Below are positions 4,489 through 47,665 of a DNA stretch of 64,000 nucleotides, one piece after another. Source of the stretch: an uncultured Candidatus Saccharibacteria bacterium (GTDB lineage Bacteria; Patescibacteriota; Doudnabacteria; UBA920). Positions within the stretch are counted from its first letter, which is position 1. Every line of letters starts with the position of its first letter. Made by a program: the position numbers and the translations under genes. The notes beneath the pieces were generated by a model. The model saw only the letters and a program-made list of their open reading frames with translations. It was not told where the DNA came from and did no database searches. The DNA lies in the NCBI GenBank assembly GCA_964416765.1, contig CAYQEU010000001.1, positions 1,675 through 65,674 on the forward strand, read 5' to 3'.

Positions 4489-7400
4489 ATGAATATCAGC
4501 ATAGGAAAAGTCAGGCCAGGCTTTGGTACCAGAAAAACCTTCACTTTAGTGGGCGTTTTTCTGTTTTGTGCTTTGCTGGTATTCAATGGTTTTTTCCCCT
4601 CCAGCGGTGGAATTAAAAAAGCTCATGCGGCCCCGGTAACGATCACATTTTACTCGGATGATTACTGGCAGGTTCCTGCCGGTGTGACTTCCGTAACTAT
4701 TGATGCATGGGGCGGCGGCGGCGGCGGTAATTCCATCGGCCAAGGCGGTTACGGCGGAGGCGGCGGCGGTTACGCGCATGGTACTGTTAGCGTTACCCCT
4801 GGAAATTACTATGACATTATAGTCGGCCAAGGAGGGGTGGCGGGAGAAAAAAATGGCGGCGCGGGCGGCCCCACATATTTTGGTGGTGGTGACGTGGGTG
4901 CTACTGGCGGCGATGGCGGCCAGAGTGGTATTGGACCCGGAGTGGGGGGCAATATTTTTGCCGGTGATTTTGGGTACTCAGGCGGCCAAGGCGGTTACGG
5001 CGACCAATTCTTTTCCTTGTTAGGCGGCGGCGGTGGCGGTGGTGCTGGATCTTCCGGCGCCGGCAGTACCGGTGACGATGGTATAAATGGAGGTGCTGGA
5101 GGCGCCGGCGGCCCGTCTGAAGGCGGCCAAGGCGGTCACGGCGGCGACAGCAGAAGTGATGGCGAGCCGGGCTACAGCATAGGCGGGGGCGGTGGCGGTA
5201 GCGGAGATGGCTCCTTCCCGGGAGATGGGGCAGCTGGTCAACTTTGGGTTACCTATATTCCTCCTTTAATTTGTACTTCAATCACAAGCGGCTCTGGCAA
5301 CTGGAATAGCGCCAGCACTTGGACCAATTGTGGCGGCGGCACACCCGGCTCTAATGACACCGCGGTTATTGAGGGCACCGCGCAAATCACGGTCACTGCC
5401 AGCACCACGGTAAATAACTTACAGTTTGGTGACAATTCGACACCCGCGACAAACGCGGTGCTTAAAGTTAATAGTGGCCAAACTTTAACAGTTTCCAACA
5501 CCACTACAGTTTTCAGTGCCTCTAACAATAATGTCCAAGCCACCATCCAGGATGGTACCGGTAGCGGGACGGTATCCGGTGTTTATTTGGATATAGGATC
5601 ACCCGTAATTCCTGGTACAGGATCCCACGAAACTAAATTGATATCTTCAATTTCCAATTTTTCTCTGGCGGGAAGCACAACCATGCATGGGTATTCCGGT
5701 GTTTCAAGAGACAACGACCCAACTCTGGAAATACCTTCTGGTACTATGACGACTACCAGCCTAACTACAACTTTATCTGCTTCGTGGGTGACTGCTACTA
5801 TTTCAATGAACACGGGTGCCCAGACGGGAACCCTTAAACTGACCAGTAACCCCGCATGGTCCATAAGCGGTACAGGTACCACCAATCTGAACTTAGCAGG
5901 GACGGGCAACACGGTGGAGTATTCGGGCACAAATGCTTCCATACTCAACACGACTTACAAGAACCTCAAAGTAAGCGGTGCCCTGGGTACGACGGCACAG
6001 ACCGCTACTGTTGCAGGAGCCTTCACTGTTACGGGCAGCGGTAGCATGTCTCCAAGCTCGGGAACCATGACGTTTAACAACGGGGCTTCAATAAATAATT
6101 CCGGTACCCTTAATTTCTATAATCTATCAACTTCGGTATTTTCTTCCGTTAGCTCGAGCGGTAGCTTCGGGGTAGCTTCAGGCGGCACGTTTACCATTGG
6201 GGGAGCGAGCACGTTTACCCCGGCAGCAGGCGATGTTATTACCGGTACCTCTGCTACTATTACCGGAAGCGGCACGGCCAAGGTCACCCGTACCGCGGCG
6301 ACCGCTGATTTTAATACTCAATACAATTTTGGCACTAAGACCCTGACTAACTTAACCGTGGACTACGCGGGCAGCGGGCAATCGTTGAGCAATCTCACAT
6401 ACGGTGGACTAAAAGTGAGCGGATCCATTACGGGCGCCACCGCTACTGCAACTGTGGGCACTAACTTTAATGTTACGGGCACCTTCACGCCCAGCGCCGG
6501 CACGATTACCATGAGCGGCACGAGTTCCATTACGAATTCAGGCACACTTACGTTCATTAACTTAATCATCAATACTTTGGCGTCAGTGACCGGCAACACT
6601 AGCTTTGGTGTTTCAGGCACCTTTACGGAAAATTCTGGGGCCAGTTTCGCCGCGGCTTCAGGCACGCAAACATTTAACAACGGTTCGAGCATAGTAAAAA
6701 ACAGCACCCAGCTGCTTCAGTTTAATAATCTAACGGTGGCGGCATCTGGCACCATAACCGCTAACGTGGACATGAGCATTAATAGCGCCGTAACCGTACT
6801 TTCTTCCGGCACGTGGAATGCCACGGCGGGCACGGTTACCATGATGGATGGGTCATCAATTTCAAACGCGGGAACCCTGTCCTTCCAAAACCTGACCATA
6901 GGGGCAGGGGGGACAACTAATGTCACCGCCAACGCTAGCTACACTGTTAAGGGGGGTTGGACAATAAGTTCGAACGCTACGCTATCCTCCAGCTCCGGTA
7001 CAGTAACCTTAACCGCTTCTGGAACGCCTTTTGTCATGAGTGGCTCATTTTCCCCGTCAGGAACTAATACGGTTAAGTACGCGTCCAGCACGGGCGCTAC
7101 AGTGACCAGCAACATAAGTTACCAAAATCTCGACATTTCTCCCAGCAGCGGAACTCCGACTTTTTCGGTTGGCTTCTCCAATCTTAGCGTGGGGGGTGAT
7201 CTTACTCTAACAGGAACAGTCGCGACAACCTTCAATTTGAATAATATCGCATCTTACCTGGATGTTAACGGAAACGTGAGCATCAACTCTGGGAATACCT
7301 TGGTGGCTCCGCCGAGCTCCGCGATTTTCTATATTGGCGGGAATTATACCAATTCGGGGACATTGAACAACAATGTTGGAACCATTCAGTTTGACGCCGG

Positions 7401-25676: not shown

Positions 25677-27088
25677 TAAGACTTGATTTCCAGGTCGCTG
25701 ATGAAAAAGTTTTGCAGACCGGAACTCAGGAAATATTGTTCGACGACATTAACTTCGCGGGGCCAGCATTGCGGAAAGGCAAGCTCGACTTGGTATCGGT
25801 ACAAGCCATGGTCGGACCCGAGTTCCTTTATGGAGTTGAACATTTCCTTTACGGTTGCCGTCTGGAACTGCTCAAAGGTGGAAAGTACAAAGTTAAACCG
25901 GGTGCGGCTGCCATGGGTCATGCAAGTTTCGCCGGGTACGGTGACCGGTTGGAAGTTATCAAGCAAACCCTGCTCATTCAGAATTTGTCCCACAGTAGTG
26001 GGCTGACCAGGAAGGTAGGAATATATGGTCATGTTGCCAATTATTTTAACAGGTTTGTAAGCTGGGTCGTGCGGGTCATGGAACATTCCGACCAGTGCGC
26101 CTTCATCACCAATTGCCTGATGACGGTAGCTGGCCAGCGATAAATCAGCTGAGAGGGGATAATAAAACATCAAGGCGATGAAAATTCCACACAATAGGGC
26201 CGGCCGGTTTACAGCCTTGCCCCAGCTTACGTAGACCAAAGCCATCATGGCAAAAGCGTAGAGGCAGATTAGGTAAAGCTGGAAGGAAAAATCGGAAAAG
26301 CCGGAATACATTCCAAGCCAGTAGCAAACTACAACAAGCGCGGCGTAAAACAAGGCCCAGAGTAGGATAGCGTTCTTGAGCCAGGGTTTGCCACGAAAAA
26401 TCAGGTAAACGAATAGCGGTATACTGACTGCCGCTTCGTGGGTAAATGGCCCGCCATCAACTATGTTTTTTACAATACTGAAAGTAACAATAGCGAAAAT
26501 GAGCCCGTAAAGACGTGGGAATTTTTCCTGCTGCCACGTCGCGAGGAACTGCCAGGCTAGCAGATAGAGGATTGCTATTATTAAGATAATTCCAACCCAG
26601 GCCACCCAGTCGGGGACCAGCCCTACGAAAGCGTAACCAGTATCAATATTTTCCTGGCTGGCTTTGTGAGTGAAAGAAAGAATTGTGCCGGAAACAACTT
26701 TGAAAGTGTGATTATGGAGCAACTTGGTGCTTGAAAGCTCCCCGTGGTTTTCAGCAATTACGTAGTCCTGGTAGCTAAAACCGTAGTGGTGATAGAACCA
26801 GACAAAACTCCCAATATTGAGCAGAAAAGACAACAACACGGCCCCGACTAAGACGTTTTTCCAGCGGGCCTTAATTTTGGGCAGCGCTATTTTAAGATTT
26901 ACCGCCAGCAGAATAAGTAAAAGGTAGGCGAGGAATAGCACTACCTTGGTGAAGCTTCGCCCACCGGCGAAAATATTTATGAGTGAATGGAGGAAAAGGA
27001 AAACGTAGTCTGACCAGACGATAAGTCCGGCTAGTATTATGACGGCGGCAATGCCGCCCCAGCGCTTAAAGAGAGAGCCCAAAGCCAT
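25676..27088 (-). CDS. Large polytopic membrane protein (470 aa, about 10 TM segments plus a C-terminal soluble domain of about 140 aa), possibly a GT-C-like or ligase-like enzyme; function unknown.
   Basis: Hydrophobicity pattern. Translationally coupled to the pilin gene (23-nt overlap). Confidence 0.6.
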   Translation of the reverse strand: MALGSLFKRWGGIAAVIILAGLIVWSDYVFLFLHSLINIFAGGRSFTKVVLFLAYLLLILLAVNLKIALPKIKARWKNVLVGAVLLSFLLNIGSFVWFYHHYGFSYQDYVIAENHGELSSTKLLHNHTFKVVSGTILSFTHKASQENIDTGYAFVGLVPDWVAWVGIILIIAILYLLAWQFLATWQQEKFPRLYGLIFAIVTFSIVKNIVDGGPFTHEAAVSIPLFVYLIFRGKPWLKNAILLWALFYAALVVVCYWLGMYSGFSDFSFQLYLICLYAFAMMALVYVSWGKAVNRPALLCGIFIALMFYYPLSADLSLASYRHQAIGDEGALVGMFHDPHDPAYKPVKIIGNMTIYSYLPGQPTTVGQILNEQGLLDNFQPVTVPGETCMTHGSRTRFNFVLSTFEQFQTATVKEMFNSIKELGSDHGLYRYQVELAFPQCWPREVNVVEQYFLSSGLQNFFISDLEIKS

Positions 27089-27596
27089 GATTTTCTCCCC
27101 ATTTGGCTTGGCCAGACTCCAGATGCTCTGCCCAAAGTTGGTACATGTAGTTTAGTTCGGTAGTTCCCAAGCCGCACCCTATTCTGTTGCACCAATCGGA
27201 CATAGCACTTGGGGGTACGTATCCATATACATAGTAGTAATTGTCGTCGCCAGCGCAATTGATGCCACAAGGGTCCTTAGAGATATTTTTGGCATATGGC
27301 GATAGGTCAGTGGCCAAAAATTTCCACTGGTCAGAATAATCATAAATAGTCGAACAAGTGCCCGGGTTTTCTGCCTTACAGTCGTACTTTCCGGCATACG
27401 GAGCATGGTCTTTATCTATAGTGTATGCCTGGATGGCGGTGTCAATTTGTTTAATATCTGCTTTACGTTTGGCGTCACGAGCCAGTTTCCTTGCGGTACT
27501 GACTGATGTCAACACGATGCTGGCCAACAGTCCAATAATGGCAATCACAACGAGCAGTTCGATTAAAGTAAAACCAGCTTGTCTATTTTTGCGCAT
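27066..27596 (-). CDS. Type IV pilin-like protein (prepilin-type N-terminal domain), Cys-rich C-terminal domain.
   Basis: MRKNRQAGFTLIELLVVIAIIGLLASI N-terminus, then several Cys residues. Confidence 0.85.
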   Translation of the reverse strand: MRKNRQAGFTLIELLVVIAIIGLLASIVLTSVSTARKLARDAKRKADIKQIDTAIQAYTIDKDHAPYAGKYDCKAENPGTCSTIYDYSDQWKFLATDLSPYAKNISKDPCGINCAGDDNYYYVYGYVPPSAMSDWCNRIGCGLGTTELNYMYQLWAEHLESGQAKWGENHGFGLSL

Positions 27597-27867: not shown

Positions 27868-27968
27868 GTGCTTATTTTACCATAGTTTAATGCCTTTTGC
27901 CTGTAATTTGGCCAATATAGTGCTATTATTATGTTATGGAAATAGGAACCCCCACAACTAAGAGAAGA

Positions 27969-28553
27969 ATGTCTGAGAGAGGGTTTACCCTTATTGAATT
28001 GCTAATGGTCATAGCCATCATAGGCTTGCTGGCTTCCATTACTTTAACCAGCGTGACCGCGGTACGGGACAAAGCCCGAGACACCAGACGAGTGACCGAC
28101 GTGAAGCAGCTAGCGGGTGCCGTAGAACTTTATCGACTGGCCAATGGCACGTATCCAGTGGCCGCTGTTCCGACACTATCCATACCGGGAGTTTCCCCGA
28201 CGTACGTTAGTTCTATTCCCGCGGCTCCAGTGCCGCCGGCCCGGAACTGTACCTCTTCCCAAAACCAATATTTGTACCAATCTGACGGAACCAATTATGG
28301 AATCCAGTTTTGCATCGGGGGAAATGTGGGAAGTATCGGATCGGGTGTGGGGGTTATGTCAGACAAAGGAGCAGGTTTGCGTTATGACGTAAACGGCGAT
28401 GGGGTTGTAGACAATAATGACCCAAATTATATTGCACAATACGTTGTGCTTTTAGTAAACAGTTGCCCGCTATACCTATGTGATATCAGCGGCGATGGCG
28501 TAGTTACCGCACAGGACGCCGCGCTCTTGGCACAGATTATTGCGGGATCCTAA
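27969..28553 (+). CDS. Type IV pilin-like protein with two C-terminal dockerin-like calcium-binding repeats.
   Basis: MSERG|FTLIELLMVIAIIGLLASI, where the in-frame ATG at 27936 is an alternative start. C-terminal DVNGDGVVDNNDPNYIAQYV and DISGDGVVTAQDAALLAQII match the dockerin repeat pattern D.NGDG.V...D. Confidence 0.8.
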   Translation: MSERGFTLIELLMVIAIIGLLASITLTSVTAVRDKARDTRRVTDVKQLAGAVELYRLANGTYPVAAVPTLSIPGVSPTYVSSIPAAPVPPARNCTSSQNQYLYQSDGTNYGIQFCIGGNVGSIGSGVGVMSDKGAGLRYDVNGDGVVDNNDPNYIAQYVVLLVNSCPLYLCDISGDGVVTAQDAALLAQIIAGS

Positions 28554-28601: not shown

Positions 28602-28676
28602 TGGTAGCGCTACGGGGAATCGAACCCCGATTTGATGGATGAAAACCATCTGTCCTAACCATTAGACGATAGCGCC
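28602..28676 (-). tRNA. tRNA-Glu (anticodon UUC), CCA encoded.
   Basis: Hand-folded cloverleaf: acceptor GGCGCTA/TAGCGCT with a G-U at 1:72, D-arm GTCT-AATGGTTA-GGAC, anticodon stem GATGG/CCATC with loop TTTTCAT, T-arm CGGGG-TTCGATT-CCCCG. Confidence 0.85.
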
Positions 28677-29229: not shown

Positions 29230-29403
29230 ATTCACCTCATCCTCTTTAGATTTGCCCGGCAGGCCAGGCATAGAGTACGGGAATTAGACCATGAAATGGC
29301 ATTTTTGTCAATGCCGAAATGAAAGACCGGGCAACTATATAAATATAGTTACACCGGTCTTCTGAGATGGAGCATGCCTTATGCAAAGCGGAAGAAGTAA
29401 GTA

Positions 29404-29685
29404 TTATTGCATACGGTATTTCGCTTCTGCTCCTGATCTCATTACCATCGCGCCAGCAATTCCGGCGGCGAACGCTGCGGCGAACAGCGTAACGATGGAC
29501 AAAGGGTCCTGGCGGTGTGCAACCTCTCCGGCTTGCATACCAAGGACCAATATTCCCATTAATTTGGGAACCCGTGACTTGTCAGTCACGGCTTTGACCA
29601 GCTTGGGCGGGTGCGGGGTCATTTTGACCGCGGCTCTCAGCGAGAACATACCCGCAGCTCCAAGGATCAGGAGCGCCATAGGCAT
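29404..29685 (-). CDS. Small two-TM membrane protein (93 aa), hypothetical.
   Basis: ATG at 29685 is preceded by AAAGGAG. The ORF-track GTG start at 29703 would include the RBS itself. TM helices MALLILGAAGMFSLRAAV and LSIVTLFAAAFAAGIAGAMV. Confidence 0.4.
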   Translation of the reverse strand: MPMALLILGAAGMFSLRAAVKMTPHPPKLVKAVTDKSRVPKLMGILVLGMQAGEVAHRQDPLSIVTLFAAAFAAGIAGAMVMRSGAEAKYRMQ

Positions 29686-29839
29686 AAGCTCCTTTCTGCC
29701 CACTTAAGCGTGGGCGCCCTCCATTAATATTTACTACCCGGCCCTAGTCTTCGTAACCCTTGTGACTAGGCCACCCCATGCGGCAACGGCCGGGTAGCCG
29801 GTCAGTGTACACCCGGGGAAAAGGCCTGTCAACCGCGGC

Positions 29840-29868
29840 TTGACGCACTCCCAAGAGGGGAGTAATCT
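29840..29868 (+). promoter_or_regulatory. Sigma70-type promoter TTGACG, 17-nt spacer, TAATCT for the csoR-like/trxB operon.
   Basis: TTGACG at 29840-29845, TAATCT at 29863-29868. The spacer contains inverted repeat CTCCC-AAGA-GGGAG. Confidence 0.6.
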
Positions 29869-29878
29869 GAAATAGTAA

Positions 29879-29895
29879 ACCCCCCATAGGGGGGT
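29879..29895 (+). promoter_or_regulatory. Candidate CsoR/RcnR-family operator: perfect palindrome ACCCCCC-ATA-GGGGGGT at or just downstream of the predicted transcription start.
   Basis: C6 at 29880-29885 and G6 at 29889-29894, flanked by A/T. CsoR/RcnR-family repressors are known to bind G/C-tract inverted repeats. It sits 23 nt upstream of the csoR-like ATG. Confidence 0.55.
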
Positions 29896-29917
29896 ATGAA
29901 AGGACCAGGCAATAACG

Positions 29918-30193
29918 ATGCCCGAAACCGACACCCAAAAGGACAACATCATTAAACGGCTGCACTACGCCGAGGGCCATTTGCGAGCCGTGGCTACCAT
30001 GGTGGAGAATAAAGCGTACTGCATGGATATCATCAACCAGAACCACGCCGTCATTGAAGCGCTGAAGAAAATCAACGGCATGATTTTGGAAGGCTACCTT
30101 GGTGAGTGCGCCTTTGACGCCGTAAACAGCAAGAACGCCCAAAAACGAAAAAAAGCAGTCATGGAATTAGTAAATTTATACAGCAAGAAATAA
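29918..30193 (+). CDS. CsoR/RcnR/FrmR-family (DUF156) metal- or stress-sensing transcriptional repressor.
   Basis: IIKRLHYAEGHLRAVATMVENKAYCMDIINQNHAVIEALKKINGMILEGYLGEC is the family helical-bundle signature, with Cys in AYCMD and a second Cys in GEC. RBS AAAGGA. Confidence 0.8.
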   Translation: MPETDTQKDNIIKRLHYAEGHLRAVATMVENKAYCMDIINQNHAVIEALKKINGMILEGYLGECAFDAVNSKNAQKRKKAVMELVNLYSKK

Positions 30194-30194
30194 C

Positions 30195-31178
30195 ATGGAA
30201 AACGAAATTTACAAAACTATCATCATTGGTTCCGGCCCAGCCGGACTTACCGCCGCCCTTTATGCTTCCCGCGCCGACTTGAAACCGTTGCTCATATCCG
30301 GCTTTGAACCAGGCGGCCAGCTTATGCAAACCACCGATGTCGAAAACTTCCCGGGTTTTCCGGAAGGGATCCAGGGTCCCGAGTTAATGCAGAAAATGAT
30401 TGAACAGGCTAAGCGCTTTGGTACGGAGTGGGTGCAGGAAAACGTGACCGCGGTGGACTTTTCCGGGGTGCCGCTAAAAGTTTCGACGGAAGGTAAGACT
30501 TATTTGGGCGAAACAGTAATAATTGCCACGGGTGCCGAGGCTAACTGGCTTGGTTTGCCCAACGAGCAAAGATTGCGCGGCAAGGGCGTTTCCGCCTGCG
30601 CCACCTGTGACGGATTTTTCTTCCGCGACAAGGAGGTTGTGGTAATTGGCGGGGGAGACAGCGCCATGGAGGAAGCTAATTTCCTGACTAAGTTTGCCTC
30701 CAAAGTTACCATACTTCACCGCAGCGACAACTTTCGGGCTTCCCGTATCATGTTAAAGCGCGCCCAGGACAATCCTAAGATTTCCTTTATCACCAACATC
30801 ACCGTTACGGATGTTTTGGGAGAAGAAAATGTTACCGGGGTCCGGTACAAGGACAATGCCACCGGCGAAGAAAAGGAATTGGCGTGTAATGGTTATTTTG
30901 CCGCCATTGGACACACCCCGTCTACCAAAGTATTTGCCAACAGCGGTGTTAACACTGACATCAAGGGTTATGTAATAACCACCGATCACACACGCACTAG
31001 CATCCCTCGGGTGTTCACCGCGGGCGACGTGCATGACCCGCGTTACCGCCAGGCCGTAACAGCCGCCGGCATGGGCTGCATGGCCGCTCTCGACGTGGAG
31101 AAGTTTTTGGCTGAGATGGAGCACCAAATGGGGGACATGCAAGATATGGAACAAATGAAAGCTCAGACCAATGCTTGA
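30195..31178 (+). CDS. trxB: Thioredoxin-disulfide reductase (TrxB) with an unusual Met-rich C-terminal extension.
   Basis: FAD motif IIIGSGPAGLTAALYASRA, redox-active CATCDG, NADPH motif VIGGGDSAMEEA. C-terminal tail EMEHQMGDMQDMEQMK. Confidence 0.9.
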   Translation: MENEIYKTIIIGSGPAGLTAALYASRADLKPLLISGFEPGGQLMQTTDVENFPGFPEGIQGPELMQKMIEQAKRFGTEWVQENVTAVDFSGVPLKVSTEGKTYLGETVIIATGAEANWLGLPNEQRLRGKGVSACATCDGFFFRDKEVVVIGGGDSAMEEANFLTKFASKVTILHRSDNFRASRIMLKRAQDNPKISFITNITVTDVLGEENVTGVRYKDNATGEEKELACNGYFAAIGHTPSTKVFANSGVNTDIKGYVITTDHTRTSIPRVFTAGDVHDPRYRQAVTAAGMGCMAALDVEKFLAEMEHQMGDMQDMEQMKAQTNA

Positions 31179-31545
31179 GTATAGCGGCCGGGTCATTCAT
31201 GGACAGCACCTGGCCAATACGCTGGGTTTCCCGACGGCTAACCTGGATCGACGGCAGTGGCAGCGCCAAAAGCTAAACTGGAAACTGGGAGTGTATATTG
31301 GGACCGTCACCGGAAGCGGCGGGAGGAAGTATCGAGCCGCGTTCGGACTTGGCCCCAAAGAGAGAAACCAGCTGCCCAAGATTGAAGCGCACTTACTGGA
31401 TTATAAAGGGCCGCCCTTGTACGGTAAACCGCTGACGTTTCAGCTAACAAAGTACCTGCGCCCTTATAAAAAATTTCCTAACCTAGAAGCGCTCAAACGG
31501 CAAATCGCCGCTGACGTAAAACAAGCAAGCAAAATACAGCTATGA
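31171..31545 (+). CDS. Monofunctional riboflavin kinase (flavokinase domain).
   Basis: GRVIHGQHLANTLGFPTANL...EAHLLDYKGPPLYGKPLTFQLTKYLRPYKKFPNLEALKRQIAADV matches the RFK fold motifs. It overlaps the trxB end by 8 nt. Confidence 0.8.
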   Translation: MLEYSGRVIHGQHLANTLGFPTANLDRRQWQRQKLNWKLGVYIGTVTGSGGRKYRAAFGLGPKERNQLPKIEAHLLDYKGPPLYGKPLTFQLTKYLRPYKKFPNLEALKRQIAADVKQASKIQL

Positions 31546-32468
31546 AAAAATACATAAAATATGCCCCCTATCTGGTGTTTGTCGCGGCAATGCTTTGGGC
31601 AACTGATGCCCCTTTCCGCGTTTATTTAACCAGCCAGCTCTCCAGTAATTTTATTGTCTTGGCGGAGCATCTGGTTGATGTGTTAGTGGCACTTCCCATA
31701 CTAATTAGCGTGTGGCCGGAACTCAAACAACTTAATGGCAAAGCCTGGATTTCTGTTTTAATAATTGCCATTGGCGGTTCTGCCCTGGCTTCCGTTGCTT
31801 TTACCGAAGCGTTCCGTTACATGAACCCCTCCGTCGCCATCCTTCTGCAAAAACTCCAGCCGCTAATCGCGATTTCGCTCGCTGCCGGCCTGCTCCGGGA
31901 GCGGCTTCGCGAGCGGTTCTGGATTTGGGCCGTGTTGGCTTTGGCCGGCGCGTACATAATTTCCTTCCCTCACTTGCGACCTGAACTTTATGCCGGAGAG
32001 CAGTTTAATCCCAACATGATCGGCGTAGGCCTGGCCCTGCTGGCCGCGGTATTGTGGGCTACTTCCACTGTCCTGGGACGATATGTCTTAAGCAAGGTTA
32101 GTTTTACCGCCATGACCAGCTTGCGTTTCGTGTTCGCGTTTCTGTTCCTTATCCTCCTGAACGCTTACCAGGGCTCATTTTCCCAGGTTCAACTGCTGAC
32201 TCCGAAGGATCTACTGTTCATTGCCATAATTGCCGTGGCATCCGGAATAGTCTCGCTCTATATCTATTACGCCGGTTTGCAGAATACCAAAGCTTCCATT
32301 GCTACTATCGCTGAGTTAGGGTTCCCCCTGGCTGCCGTGGTGGTAAACTATTTCTTTCTGCATGCGGCTTTGGCGCCCATGCAGCTCGTTGGAATTGCGG
32401 TATTGCTCTTGGCCGTGTGGCAGCTGGGCAAGGTAAACCGGGAAGAAGTATCGGTTTCCACTGTTTAA
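31542..32468 (+). CDS. EamA/DMT-family transporter (10 TM segments), candidate riboflavin or metabolite transporter.
   Basis: Two EamA-like halves. 4-nt ATGA overlap with the riboflavin kinase gene. Confidence 0.75.
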   Translation: MKKYIKYAPYLVFVAAMLWATDAPFRVYLTSQLSSNFIVLAEHLVDVLVALPILISVWPELKQLNGKAWISVLIIAIGGSALASVAFTEAFRYMNPSVAILLQKLQPLIAISLAAGLLRERLRERFWIWAVLALAGAYIISFPHLRPELYAGEQFNPNMIGVGLALLAAVLWATSTVLGRYVLSKVSFTAMTSLRFVFAFLFLILLNAYQGSFSQVQLLTPKDLLFIAIIAVASGIVSLYIYYAGLQNTKASIATIAELGFPLAAVVVNYFFLHAALAPMQLVGIAVLLLAVWQLGKVNREEVSVSTV

Positions 32469-32488: not shown

Positions 32489-33715
32489 ATGAATAACAAC
32501 CCATTTGAATCAGCCCAGGCCCAGCTCCGCGCGGCCGCGGAAATCGCCAACTTTGACCCGGACAAAATAGCCCGGCTCATGGAACCTGACCGCTACACCG
32601 AAGTTTCCATTCCCGTGCGCATGGACGACGGTTCCCAAAAAATCTATACCGGTTTCCGCAGCCAGCACAATAACGCGCGCGGCCCGTACAAAGGAGGTAT
32701 CCGCTATCATCAGCAGGTCAACCTGGATGAAGTAAAAGCCTTAAGCTTTTGGATGTCCTTTAAGAACGCGGTAGTTAACGTACCGTTTGGCGGCGGCAAG
32801 GGCGGTATTATAGTAAACCCAAAAGAATTGTCAGAAGGGGAATTGGAACGGTTATCCCGCGGGTACATACAAAAGATGTACCGTTTGTTTGGCCCTGAGT
32901 TTGATGTTCCCGCTCCGGATGTAAACACCAACGGTCAGATCATGGGCTGGTTCCTCGACGAGTATGAAAAGTTAACCGGCACCAAAGCGCCAGCCACTTT
33001 TACCGGTAAGAACATCGAAGATGGAGGGAGTGAAGGACGTACTGAGGCCACCGGTTACGGCGGTGGATATGTAATCCGCGAAGCCGTGAAGGCTGGAATC
33101 ATCCCGGAAGGCAAGCAAACCATCGCCATCCAGGGTTTTGGTAACGTCGCTACTTACCTGGCGGAAAGCGTCGCCAGTCTTGGCTTCACTATTGTTGCCT
33201 TGTCAGACAGCAAAGGCGGAGTATATAACGCTGAAGGGATCGATGTCGCCGCTGCCGAAAAGCATAAAAAGGAAACCGGCGCGTTAAAAGACTTACCCGG
33301 CACCCAGAATATTACCAATGAAGAACTACTAGAGCTGGATGTCGCGGTTTTGGTACCGGCCGCCTTGGAAAATGTTTTGACCGCCGACAATGCTAACAAC
33401 ATTAAAGCGCATTTAATTCTGGAAATGGCCAACGGTCCTACCACACCGGAAGCAGACCAAATTTTCCATGACAAAAATATCGCGGTAATACCGGACATTC
33501 TGGCCAACAGCGGGGGAGTGGGAACTTCCTACTTCGAATGGTACCAAAATATGCACAACGAGAAATGGTCCAAGGAAGATGTGCTGAAGAAACTGGACGA
33601 GTACATGGTGAAGGCTTTCGCGGACGTTGTGGCAAAGAAGAATGACCATAATACTACCTACCGGAACGCGGCGTACATAGTGGCTGCCAACCGGATTATT
33701 GAAGCCATGGAGTAG
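32489..33715 (+). CDS. gdhA: Glutamate dehydrogenase (Glu/Leu/Phe/Val dehydrogenase family).
   Basis: YKGGIRYH...VPFGGGKGGI catalytic Lys/Gly-rich motif, and a C-terminal Rossmann domain. Confidence 0.9.
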   Translation: MNNNPFESAQAQLRAAAEIANFDPDKIARLMEPDRYTEVSIPVRMDDGSQKIYTGFRSQHNNARGPYKGGIRYHQQVNLDEVKALSFWMSFKNAVVNVPFGGGKGGIIVNPKELSEGELERLSRGYIQKMYRLFGPEFDVPAPDVNTNGQIMGWFLDEYEKLTGTKAPATFTGKNIEDGGSEGRTEATGYGGGYVIREAVKAGIIPEGKQTIAIQGFGNVATYLAESVASLGFTIVALSDSKGGVYNAEGIDVAAAEKHKKETGALKDLPGTQNITNEELLELDVAVLVPAALENVLTADNANNIKAHLILEMANGPTTPEADQIFHDKNIAVIPDILANSGGVGTSYFEWYQNMHNEKWSKEDVLKKLDEYMVKAFADVVAKKNDHNTTYRNAAYIVAANRIIEAME

Positions 33716-33738: not shown

Positions 33739-33763
33739 AAGGGCTTGTCAAAGCCCTTTTTTT
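33739..33763 (+). terminator. Intrinsic terminator AAGGGCTT-GTCA-AAGCCCTTTTTTT after gdh.
   Basis: 8-bp stem plus a T7 run. It overlaps the -35 of the downstream promoter. Confidence 0.75.
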
Positions 33764-47577: not shown

Positions 47578-47665
47578 TGGTGGGCATGGAGGGAGTTGAA
47601 CCCTCATGAGATTGCTCTCACACGCACCTGAAGCGTGCGCGTATGCCAGTTCCGCCACATGCCCA
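47578..47665 (-). tRNA. tRNA-Leu (anticodon CAG), class II with a long variable arm, CCA encoded.
   Basis: Acceptor GGGCATG/CATGCCC, D-arm TGGCGGAACTGGCATACGC, anticodon stem CACGC/GCGTG with loop TTCAGGT, variable arm TGAGA-GCAA-TCTCA, T-arm GAGGG-TTCAACT-CCCTC. Confidence 0.85.

Follow-up and report, generated by a model that had tools for sequence, protein, structure and literature searches.

The CsoR/RcnR superfamily serves as a model for how one small fold can gain different inducers, namely copper, nickel/cobalt, formaldehyde and persulfide. Its Cu(I)-sensing members, referred to here as Cu(I)-CsoR, are defined by a Cys-His-Cys ligand set together with cop genes, whereas CstR carries two conserved cysteines without the histidine and acts by thiol crosslinking. 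Thiol-based regulators of trxB, the gene for thioredoxin reductase (TrxR), are Spx in Bacillus, sigmaR-RsrA in Streptomyces, and OxyR in Escherichia coli and related bacteria; Spx is an RNA-polymerase-binding activator, RsrA an anti-sigma factor and OxyR a LysR-type activator. What makes the dithiol site of a CsoR fold answer copper on the one hand or oxidants on the other has been stated as an open question (PMC8643695). Here we analyze a locus in which a CsoR-family gene directly precedes trxB. It lies in a stretch of 64,000 nucleotides from an uncultured bacterium of the Doudnabacteria lineage (Patescibacteriota; contig CAYQEU010000001.1 of assembly GCA_964416765.1), and the whole of this stretch is called the window in the following.

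Judging from the sequence features described below, the regulator very probably acts as a CsoR-family autorepressor that occludes the start site of a trxB-ribK-eamA-gdh operon. More tentatively, we propose that a clade within the Candidate Phyla Radiation (CPR) made a Cu(I)-sensing CsoR into a redox switch of the thioredoxin system, by keeping the operator and the dithiol, swapping copA for trxB (plus genes for cofactor and NADPH supply) and, in most members, replacing the ligand histidine by a Tyr-Glu pair. In a literature search that was not exhaustive, we found no precedent for a CsoR-family regulator of trxB, nor for CsoR in Patescibacteria.

A CsoR-family gene heads a predicted trxB operon

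Gene calls were made from the list of open reading frames (ORFs) together with direct reading of the sequence, and all coordinates are positions in the 64-kb window (Table 1). The first-pass annotation had called the first gene a CsoR/RcnR-family repressor and the second a thioredoxin reductase, and both identities are borne out by profile searches: residues 7-87 of the regulator match PF02583 (Trns_repr_metal; CsoR/RcnR, DUF156) at 70.7 bits, compared to a gathering score of 22.8, while TrxB scores 403.6 bits against the TIGR01292 equivalog (cutoff 343.45) and carries the redox motif CATC (SACATCDGFF, at about 30597), the sole CATC motif in the window. The cysteines placed by that annotation in AYCMD and GEC of the regulator are both read in the 91-aa ORF. 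What it had missed is that the operon reaches past trxB through ribK, eamA and gdh. With intergenic distances of +1, -8, -4 and +20 nt, the csoR-like regulator, trxB, ribK, eamA and gdh are predicted to form a single five-gene operon, and the hairpin following gdh is the best terminator-like one of the region. Support for the assignment of gdh is also found in a related locus (L032), where ELFV_dehydrog domains are present in the ortholog.

Scanning one genome per species yielded 31 related loci, all of them from metagenome-assembled genomes of Patescibacteria/CPR (Doudnabacteria-like). About 150 close homologs of the regulator occur in metagenomes at 60-99% identity, the few named ones belonging to Candidatus Doudnabacteria. 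In every one of the 30 loci that extend far enough, a TrxB ortholog (63-80% identity) directly follows the regulator. Conservation further downstream is looser, with gdh found in 25 of these 30 loci, ribK in 15 and eamA in 13, where ribK and eamA co-occur (13/30); the same three genes also follow trxB in L032, and a 785-kb contig from the Joint Genome Institute (JGI) has the same gene order as the window operon. Motifs of P-type ATPases (DKTGT), CopZ-like proteins (MxCxxC) and thioredoxin (WCGPC) are absent within ±5 kb in the 31 loci as well as from the entire window.

Two further observations concern the TrxB family at these loci. Past gdh, and in the same orientation, a further TrxR-like paralog (32-39% identical, motif CATCDAPLY) is often encoded (L003, L005, L008, L010, L012, L016, L022, L024-L026, L028-L030); it has no counterpart in the window. 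In L002 and L007 the TrxB ortholog was recovered in two tblastn pieces (5267-6363 and 5455-6413, respectively), a split that would point to an insertion, a frameshift or faulty assembly of these genomes.

A conserved palindrome overlaps the predicted transcription start

The first-pass annotation had described a promoter, TTGACG-17-TAATCT, followed at the predicted start by a perfect palindrome, and all of these sequence statements hold. The predicted operator ACCCCCCATAGGGGGGT lies 10 nt past the -10 box and 22 nt before the regulator gene, corresponding to about +4 to +20 of the transcript. As the operator overlaps the transcription start, binding of the repressor would block RNA polymerase. 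The -10 box has aligned counterparts in the homologous promoters of other loci; because it matches the consensus at only three of six positions, the promoter was not listed by the consensus scanner.

One palindrome with 8-bp arms per 64 kb is, taken alone, not beyond chance. The significance of the operator comes from its being unique in the window, where it is the sole C5+-N1-5-G5+ site, and from its being kept in all 32 related promoters compared (the window plus the 31 related loci). It has the 17-nt form A-C6-N3-G6-T in 30 of the 32 sequences, while the remaining two have variants of 18-20 nt. Positions ±3 to ±8 from its center are invariant, and the central three nucleotides carry 0.06-0.35 bits. 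Each 10-kb locus contains exactly one site of the A-C6-N3-G6-T type, and in 30 of the 32 sequences a 17-nt site is placed 6-11 nt (mode 8) past a TTGACA-N16-18-TAnnnT promoter.

Published operators of CsoR and CstR are G/C-tract pseudopalindromes with TAC/GTA flanks, examples being the streptomycete consensus ATATACCCCTNAGGGGTATAT and the TtCsoR operator CCCCACCCCACCTGGGGTGGGG (PMC3902906, PMC8643695, PMC10318464), and the core of the Streptococcus mitis cst operator is ATACCCTTATGGGGTAT (PMC8643695). The first-pass assignment of the palindrome to the G/C-tract operators of CsoR-type repressors has stood up well, and the predicted site is also kept at every related locus. It shares the G/C tracts and the AC...GT(A) flanks with the operators of Cu(I)-CsoR, which likewise is encoded first in its own operon, and it belongs to the same operator class as the cst site; the tracts of the clade are, however, longer than those published (AC-X13-GT vs TAC-X9-GTA).

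In five loci (L004, L009, L015, L018, L023) the operator and the start codon of the regulator are separated by leaders of up to 315 nt that contain short AT-rich tandem repeats (CCTAATTCCTAATTCC, GATTTAAGATTGAGGATTTAAG); none is present in the window.

The sensing site carries a CstR-like fingerprint

Ten solved family members were matched by the regulator, the best being the Cu(I)-CsoRs, which share its Pfam family (Geobacillus thermodenitrificans 4M1P, Mycobacterium tuberculosis 2HH7, Bacillus subtilis and Streptomyces lividans); with 4M1P the alignment runs from end to end of the three-helix fold, pairing residues 2-90 of the regulator with 16-104, and at 91 aa the protein is of the usual size for the family (about 90-100 aa). 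The first-pass annotation had suggested aligning the regulator with its solved relatives, and the alignment with CsoR, InrS, CstR and FrmR yields the W-X-Y-Z fingerprint x-C-Y-C (x-C35-Y60-C64), in which C35 corresponds to the first Cu(I)-binding Cys, C64 to the second, and Y60 to the ligand His (His61 of MtCsoR). Across an alignment of 30 homologs, five residues never vary: C35, C64, Y34, E83 and Q41. Besides the Cys/Cys ligands, the regulator thereby shares with Cu(I)-CsoR the second-shell Tyr and Glu of the copper sensors (Y34 and E83) and the DNA-contact Gln (Q41). It differs in the replacement of the ligand His by Tyr60, in the RLXR DNA-binding motif, whose second Arg is Tyr17 in the window protein, and in its predicted targets, which are trxB, ribK, eamA and gdh and not copZ/copA. 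As the window regulator lacks the Cys-His-Cys ligand set, and as no adjacent copA or copZ is found in the window or within ±5 kb of the 31 loci, it is a member of the CsoR/RcnR superfamily that stands outside the Cu(I)-CsoR class, which these two features define.

The pattern of two conserved cysteines without a His at position Y (C35, C64, Tyr60) is that of CstR (Staphylococcus aureus, Enterococcus faecalis, Streptococcus pneumoniae 7MQ1; x-C-x-C), where the Asn55 'wedge' of SpCstR stands against Tyr60 here. In contrast to CstR, the regulator has a Tyr before the first Cys, as in the copper sensors, and it is not adjoined by genes for a sulfide:quinone reductase, persulfide dioxygenase, rhodanese or coenzyme A (CoA)-persulfide reductase: none of sqr, cstA/B, rhodanese and coaP is among its neighbors, which are trxB, ribK, eamA, gdh and a gene for a small membrane protein. 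The window regulator is thus characterized by a CstR fingerprint without the CstR neighborhood and without its closest sequence affinity being to CstR. The fingerprints of the Ni/Co sensors RcnR and InrS (H-C-H-H and H-C-H-C, respectively) are absent as well, as there is no conserved N-terminal His and position Y is occupied by Tyr.

The residue at position 60 divides the clade. Among 120 homologs it is Tyr in 89 and His in 30, and 87 of the 89 Tyr forms also carry Glu63, a position usually taken by Val, Ile, Ser or Ala in the His60 forms. The latter constitute a single subclade, with the same operator type and the same trxB target as the Tyr60 forms.

Descent from copper-sensing CsoRs of the CPR

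A search with a profile of the clade against 1.84 billion representative proteins returned two representatives at 163 and 153 bits, the next one scoring 96.8 bits, and by this measure the regulator clade is tight and isolated. Scored against the solved relatives, the profile gives 58.6 and 57.5 bits for Cu-CsoRs (4.9e-15 and 1e-14), 43.6 bits for CstR and 27.6 bits for FrmR, where the CstR value is that of SpCstR from cluster 10, the sole one compared among the CstR clusters 3, 4 and 10 of a published similarity network. Pairwise identity to every solved relative is 31-37%, a range in which no subfamily can be assigned and for which the profile scores and the nearest representatives are more informative. 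The canonical Y-C...H...C signature is carried by 138 of the next 149 representatives, which is why His is taken to be ancestral and Tyr60/Glu63 derived. By profile score and nearest relatives, the regulator belongs by descent with the Cu-type CsoRs, and not with CstR or FrmR.

The nearest outgroup consists of CPR CsoRs of the Microgenomates/Shapirobacteria type (for example P0242, P0419 and P0494), which are 40-45% identical to the window regulator and share its operator (ACCCCCCCATGGGGGGT or ACCCCCCTATGGGGGGT) as well as the layout of its promoter; in the sister-group locus L038, the arrangement TTGACA-17-TAATCT-11-operator is that of the window. These proteins differ from the regulator in that C-H-C is kept and in that they are encoded upstream of HMA-type P-type ATPases, DsbD_2/cupredoxin or ArsP_1. 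Six genomic places were inspected: in three of them csoR is followed by a gene for a P-type ATPase with an HMA domain, in one by DsbD_2/cupredoxin and then a P-type ATPase without recorded HMA domain, and in two by an ArsP_1 permease, while in two (L035 and L036) trxA and a gene for a TrxR-like protein also come later on that strand. Because the nearest outgroups are C-H-C proteins with the same operator upstream of CopA-type ATPases, the locus would appear to reflect a copper-sensor lineage rewired onto trxB.

A route by which the csoR-trxB adjacency arose through deletion of copA from an ancestral csoR-copA...trxA-trxB cluster, similar to those of L035 and L036, was considered; at only 37-40% identity, the orthology of the TrxR-like genes of these two loci to the window TrxB is unproven. 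A conserved protein of 163-212 aa without Pfam match is encoded between the Cu-type csoR and the gene for the P-type ATPase or ArsP_1 in L033, L035, L036 and L038, and it may be an unrecognized copper-handling component of the CPR.

A candidate thiol switch and its copper-sensing rival

By analogy with CstR, we cautiously favor a covalent thiol switch of C35/C64' as the means by which the autorepressor of the trxB operon perceives its inducer. In the resting state the reduced repressor would bind A-C6-N3-G6-T, as a tetramer if it behaves like its solved relatives; tetramers of this superfamily are dimers of dimers, two of which bind per operator. The trigger would then be covalent modification of the C35/C64' thiols at a site between subunits, where they would form a disulfide, become bridged by a per- or polysulfide or carry an electrophile adduct, as in CstR; the thiol-crosslinking mechanism of CstR offers the best functional analogy for the window regulator. 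Once modified, the repressor would leave the operator, inducing TrxB together with possible FAD (flavin adenine dinucleotide) cofactor genes, that is ribK and a possible flavin importer, and with a reductant gene, gdh. Reduced thioredoxin would re-reduce the repressor and close the feedback loop. Such a switch would have descended from the Cu(I)-sensing CsoRs of the CPR with the operator, C35/C64', Tyr34 and Glu83 kept and the ligand His changed to Tyr60 paired with Glu63. The comparisons show the gene identities, the synteny, the conservation and position of the operator, the residue fingerprint and the descent from Cu-type CsoRs; from these we infer the inducer, a feedback loop and what ribK, eamA and gdh would supply. 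The importer is suggested by a comparison: the DMT-family transporters RibN and ImpX import riboflavin, and by analogy with them, together with the 4-nt overlap with ribK, the EamA gene may encode a flavin/riboflavin importer.

The thiol switch is favored because the window regulator lacks the allosteric His and because the output is a disulfide reductase rather than a copper exporter. The logic would be the same as that of Spx, sigmaR-RsrA and OxyR, where oxidized thiols induce the thioredoxin system, which in turn resets the sensor, but families and mechanisms are unrelated, the sensor here being a repressor of the CsoR fold. In CstR, Cu(I) is still bound without release of the DNA, for want of the allosteric His (PMC8643695), and the Tyr60 of the window protein argues against classical Cu(I) allostery.

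Alternatively, the regulator could still be a Cu(I) sensor, binding copper through the C35/C64' bis-thiolate here and through an S2N site in the His60 subclade, and derepressing TrxB as a defense against copper-catalyzed thiol oxidation where the operon has lost its CopA exporter. We regard this as unlikely, yet it is a serious rival in view of the copper-sensor descent, the invariant second-shell residues and the subclade retaining His. A number of observations weigh against the thiol switch or speak for this rival. The nearest outgroups, like most of the next representatives in the profile search, are C-H-C proteins, and in the sister loci they precede HMA-type P-type ATPases, DsbD_2/cupredoxin or ArsP_1 under the same operator, with trxA and a TrxR-like gene downstream in two cases. 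The solved Cu-CsoRs are the top matches of the clade profile, ahead of CstR. The two residues through which Cu(I) allostery operates in MtCsoR, Tyr34 and Glu83, stay invariant, and the His60 subclade, amounting to 31 of 121 sequences, also controls trxB with the same operator, so that a Cu(I) response may persist at least in these members. Furthermore, sulfide-oxidation genes are absent nearby, unlike in true CstR operons, and it is from gene linkage alone that ribK, the coupled transporter and gdh would plausibly supply FAD precursor and reducing power to TrxR. What speaks against the copper sensor is that Tyr occupies the ligand and allosteric His position in the window protein as well as in about 75% of the clade, and that genes for a copper exporter or chaperone are missing from the ±5 kb around each of the 31 loci.

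If the redox-switch reading is true, the CsoR family would gain its first regulator of thioredoxin reductase, and the clade would provide a natural pair of His and Tyr orthologs, with the same operator and target, in which to compare the copper and oxidant responses of a CsoR-fold dithiol site. The locus would add a new output to the family, namely thioredoxin reductase, encoded in one operon with genes for the supply of flavin and perhaps of NADPH, and it would represent the end of a natural evolutionary series that leads from Cu-type sisters with CopA through a His-retaining trxB subclade to the Tyr-substituted trxB majority. In the very small genomes of Doudnabacteria-like organisms, the regulator may be one of few stress regulators. 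Should the inducer be plain Cu(I), the finding would shrink to an unusual CsoR regulon.

The Met-rich tail of TrxB and other less probable readings

The window TrxB ends in ...KFLAEMEHQMGDMQDMEQMKAQTNA, and as the TIGR01292 match stops at residue 305, 22 residues remain as a Met-rich tail. This tail had been described in the first-pass annotation as copper-binding-like, and one could imagine a functional Cu(I)-binding appendage that ties the enzyme to copper handling, particularly given a regulator with copper-sensor ancestry. Met-motif Cu(I) sites are known from Ctr1, CopC/PcoC and CusF, and the tail is similar to them in the spacing of its Met residues (MxxxM/MxxM) and in having His, Asp and Glu close by. 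Among the 53 ORFs of the window, the tail is also the only cluster of at least five Met in 16 residues; when residues were shuffled within each protein, however, 11.5% of the trials produced one or more clusters of this kind (p about 0.1 per 64-kb window), making it only mildly unusual. When the other TrxB orthologs were checked for Met-rich tails, as had been suggested, the conserved copper site was not borne out. The segment that follows ...EK[FYW]L in 120 TrxB homologs is highly variable and most often 4-7 residues long, and a Met-rich version was seen in the window and in P0121 only, which is 95% identical and already has Thr in place of one Met. In the homologous tail AELEHQIDSVAEAQAETNA of P0127 (83% identical), Leu and Ile take the place of two of the Met residues, and Met-rich tails are missing in the other 118 homologs and in the 30 TrxB orthologs encoded at the loci. 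TrxB is moreover cytosolic, and cytosolic copper sites usually consist of Cys, not Met. A Cu(I)-binding role is therefore improbable, and the tail is best read, from its distribution among homologs, as lineage-specific drift in a variable hydrophilic extension that stands outside the proposed mechanism.

Another recurrent C-terminal extension, found in a subset of the TrxB orthologs of the clade, about 20 aa long and with a conserved acidic ...P.PEEHW... motif, is present in P0130, P0142, P0144, P0150, P0179, P0192, P0199, P0206 and others.

The palindrome could in principle act as an RNA hairpin in the 5' leader, serving stability, attenuation or processing, instead of binding a protein, given that in the window and most loci it comes after the -10 box, in what would be the transcribed part, and that the scanner lists it as a stem-loop on the minus strand. 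This we consider very improbable. The arms are kept as a sequence, a C-run followed by a G-run, with none of 30 covarying to other pairs and with a loop that varies freely; no U-tract follows the palindrome on the plus strand of the window, and the site fits the published CsoR-type operator class. In L012 and in the sister-group loci L033 and L034 it even lies in the spacer between the -35 and -10 boxes, where it is untranscribed, and it is therefore read as an operator at the level of DNA rather than an RNA hairpin.

An FrmR-like aldehyde sensor (fingerprint P-C-H-x) acting via the Pro2 amine and Cys35 is the least credible reading, as the MP start of the window protein, the Cys at position 35 shared with FrmR and a weak match to the NCBIfam FrmR model (32 bits vs a cutoff of 133) are set against a Pro2 present in only 14 of 120 homologs with N-termini of varying length, the position of FrmR as the most distant solved relative of the clade profile and the absence of a formaldehyde dehydrogenase gene nearby.

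Features of the locus and its surroundings

Table 1. Positions of the features of the regulator-trxB locus and of the divergent unit in the 64-kb window.
Feature	Position	Strand	Basis and remarks
-35 box TTGACG	29840-29845	+	Direct reading; aligns with TTGACA of 31 homologous promoters
-10 box TAATCT, 17-nt spacer	29863-29868	+	Direct reading; weak, 3/6 consensus positions
Predicted operator, A-C6-ATA-G6-T, perfect 17-nt palindrome	29879-29895	.	Reading and conservation
Shine-Dalgarno-like AAAGGA	29900-29905	+	12 nt 5' of the regulator ATG
CsoR-family repressor gene, 91 aa	29918-30193	+	PF02583; alignment to solved structures
TrxB, thioredoxin-disulfide reductase, 327 aa	30195-31178	+	TIGR01292; 1 nt past the regulator stop codon
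C-terminal tail of TrxB, 22 aa, Met-rich, AEMEHQMGDMQDMEQMKAQTNA	31110-31175	+	ORF translation
Riboflavin kinase (ribK), monofunctional, flavokinase domain only	31171-31545	+	PF01687, 99.9 bits; 8-nt overlap with the trxB end
EamA/DMT-family transporter (eamA)	31542-32468	+	PF00892, 130.6 bits; 4-nt overlap with ribK
Glutamate dehydrogenase (gdh), last predicted operon gene	32489-33715	+	ORF; 20 nt past eamA
Terminator-like hairpin, 8 pairs, then TTTTTTT; predicted operon end	33739-33758	+	Terminator scan
Divergent promoter TTGACA-17-TACACT	29804-29832	-	Promoter scan; kept in 15/31 related loci
Structured leader, about 100 nt	about 29690-29800	-	Fold energy
Small membrane protein coding sequence, 93 aa	29404-29685	-	Homologs in about 14 loci and L032

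The Shine-Dalgarno-like element of the regulator has an equivalent, GAAAGGA, at the same place in L001, L002 and L005.

On the opposite strand, a divergent promoter precedes the gene for the small membrane protein. In most of the 15 loci that keep it (L003, L005, L006, L008, L011, L013-L015, L017, L021 and others), the two promoters share their -35 region, with the boxes overlapping head to head in the palindrome TTGACAnnTGTCAA some 45-60 nt 5' of the operator, and this overlap may put them in competition for RNA polymerase; the two boxes of the window are 7 nt apart (TGTCAA 29827-29832, TTGACG 29840-29845). A Pfam search with the membrane protein gave no match at E<=0.01, and searches with 13 homologs gave only chance-level matches at E<=1.

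The leader of this divergent unit folds at -49.2 kcal/mol (z = -3.56), is closed by a stem of 10 bp (CUACCCGGCC/GGCCGGGUAG) and contains ...AUUAAUGGAGGG... as a conserved element. Searching Rfam with the whole window at the gathering threshold and with 29350-29950 at E<=10 returned two tRNAs and otherwise chance-level microRNA and snoRNA matches only, and hence no family for either the operator or the divergent leader. An analysis of nine divergent leaders with MAFFT and RNAalifold gave no consensus structure, owing to the poor quality of their alignment.

Of the two tRNAs in the window, one lies just upstream of the locus (28605-28676, minus strand) and the other at 47581-47664 (minus strand). 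Also just upstream of the locus are two ORFs for type IV pilin-like proteins with the N-terminal sequence GFTLIELLVVIAIIGLLASI, located at 27066-27596 on the minus strand and at 27936-28553 on the plus strand. Together with the neighboring tRNA, these pilin-like ORFs represent gene content typical of the CPR.

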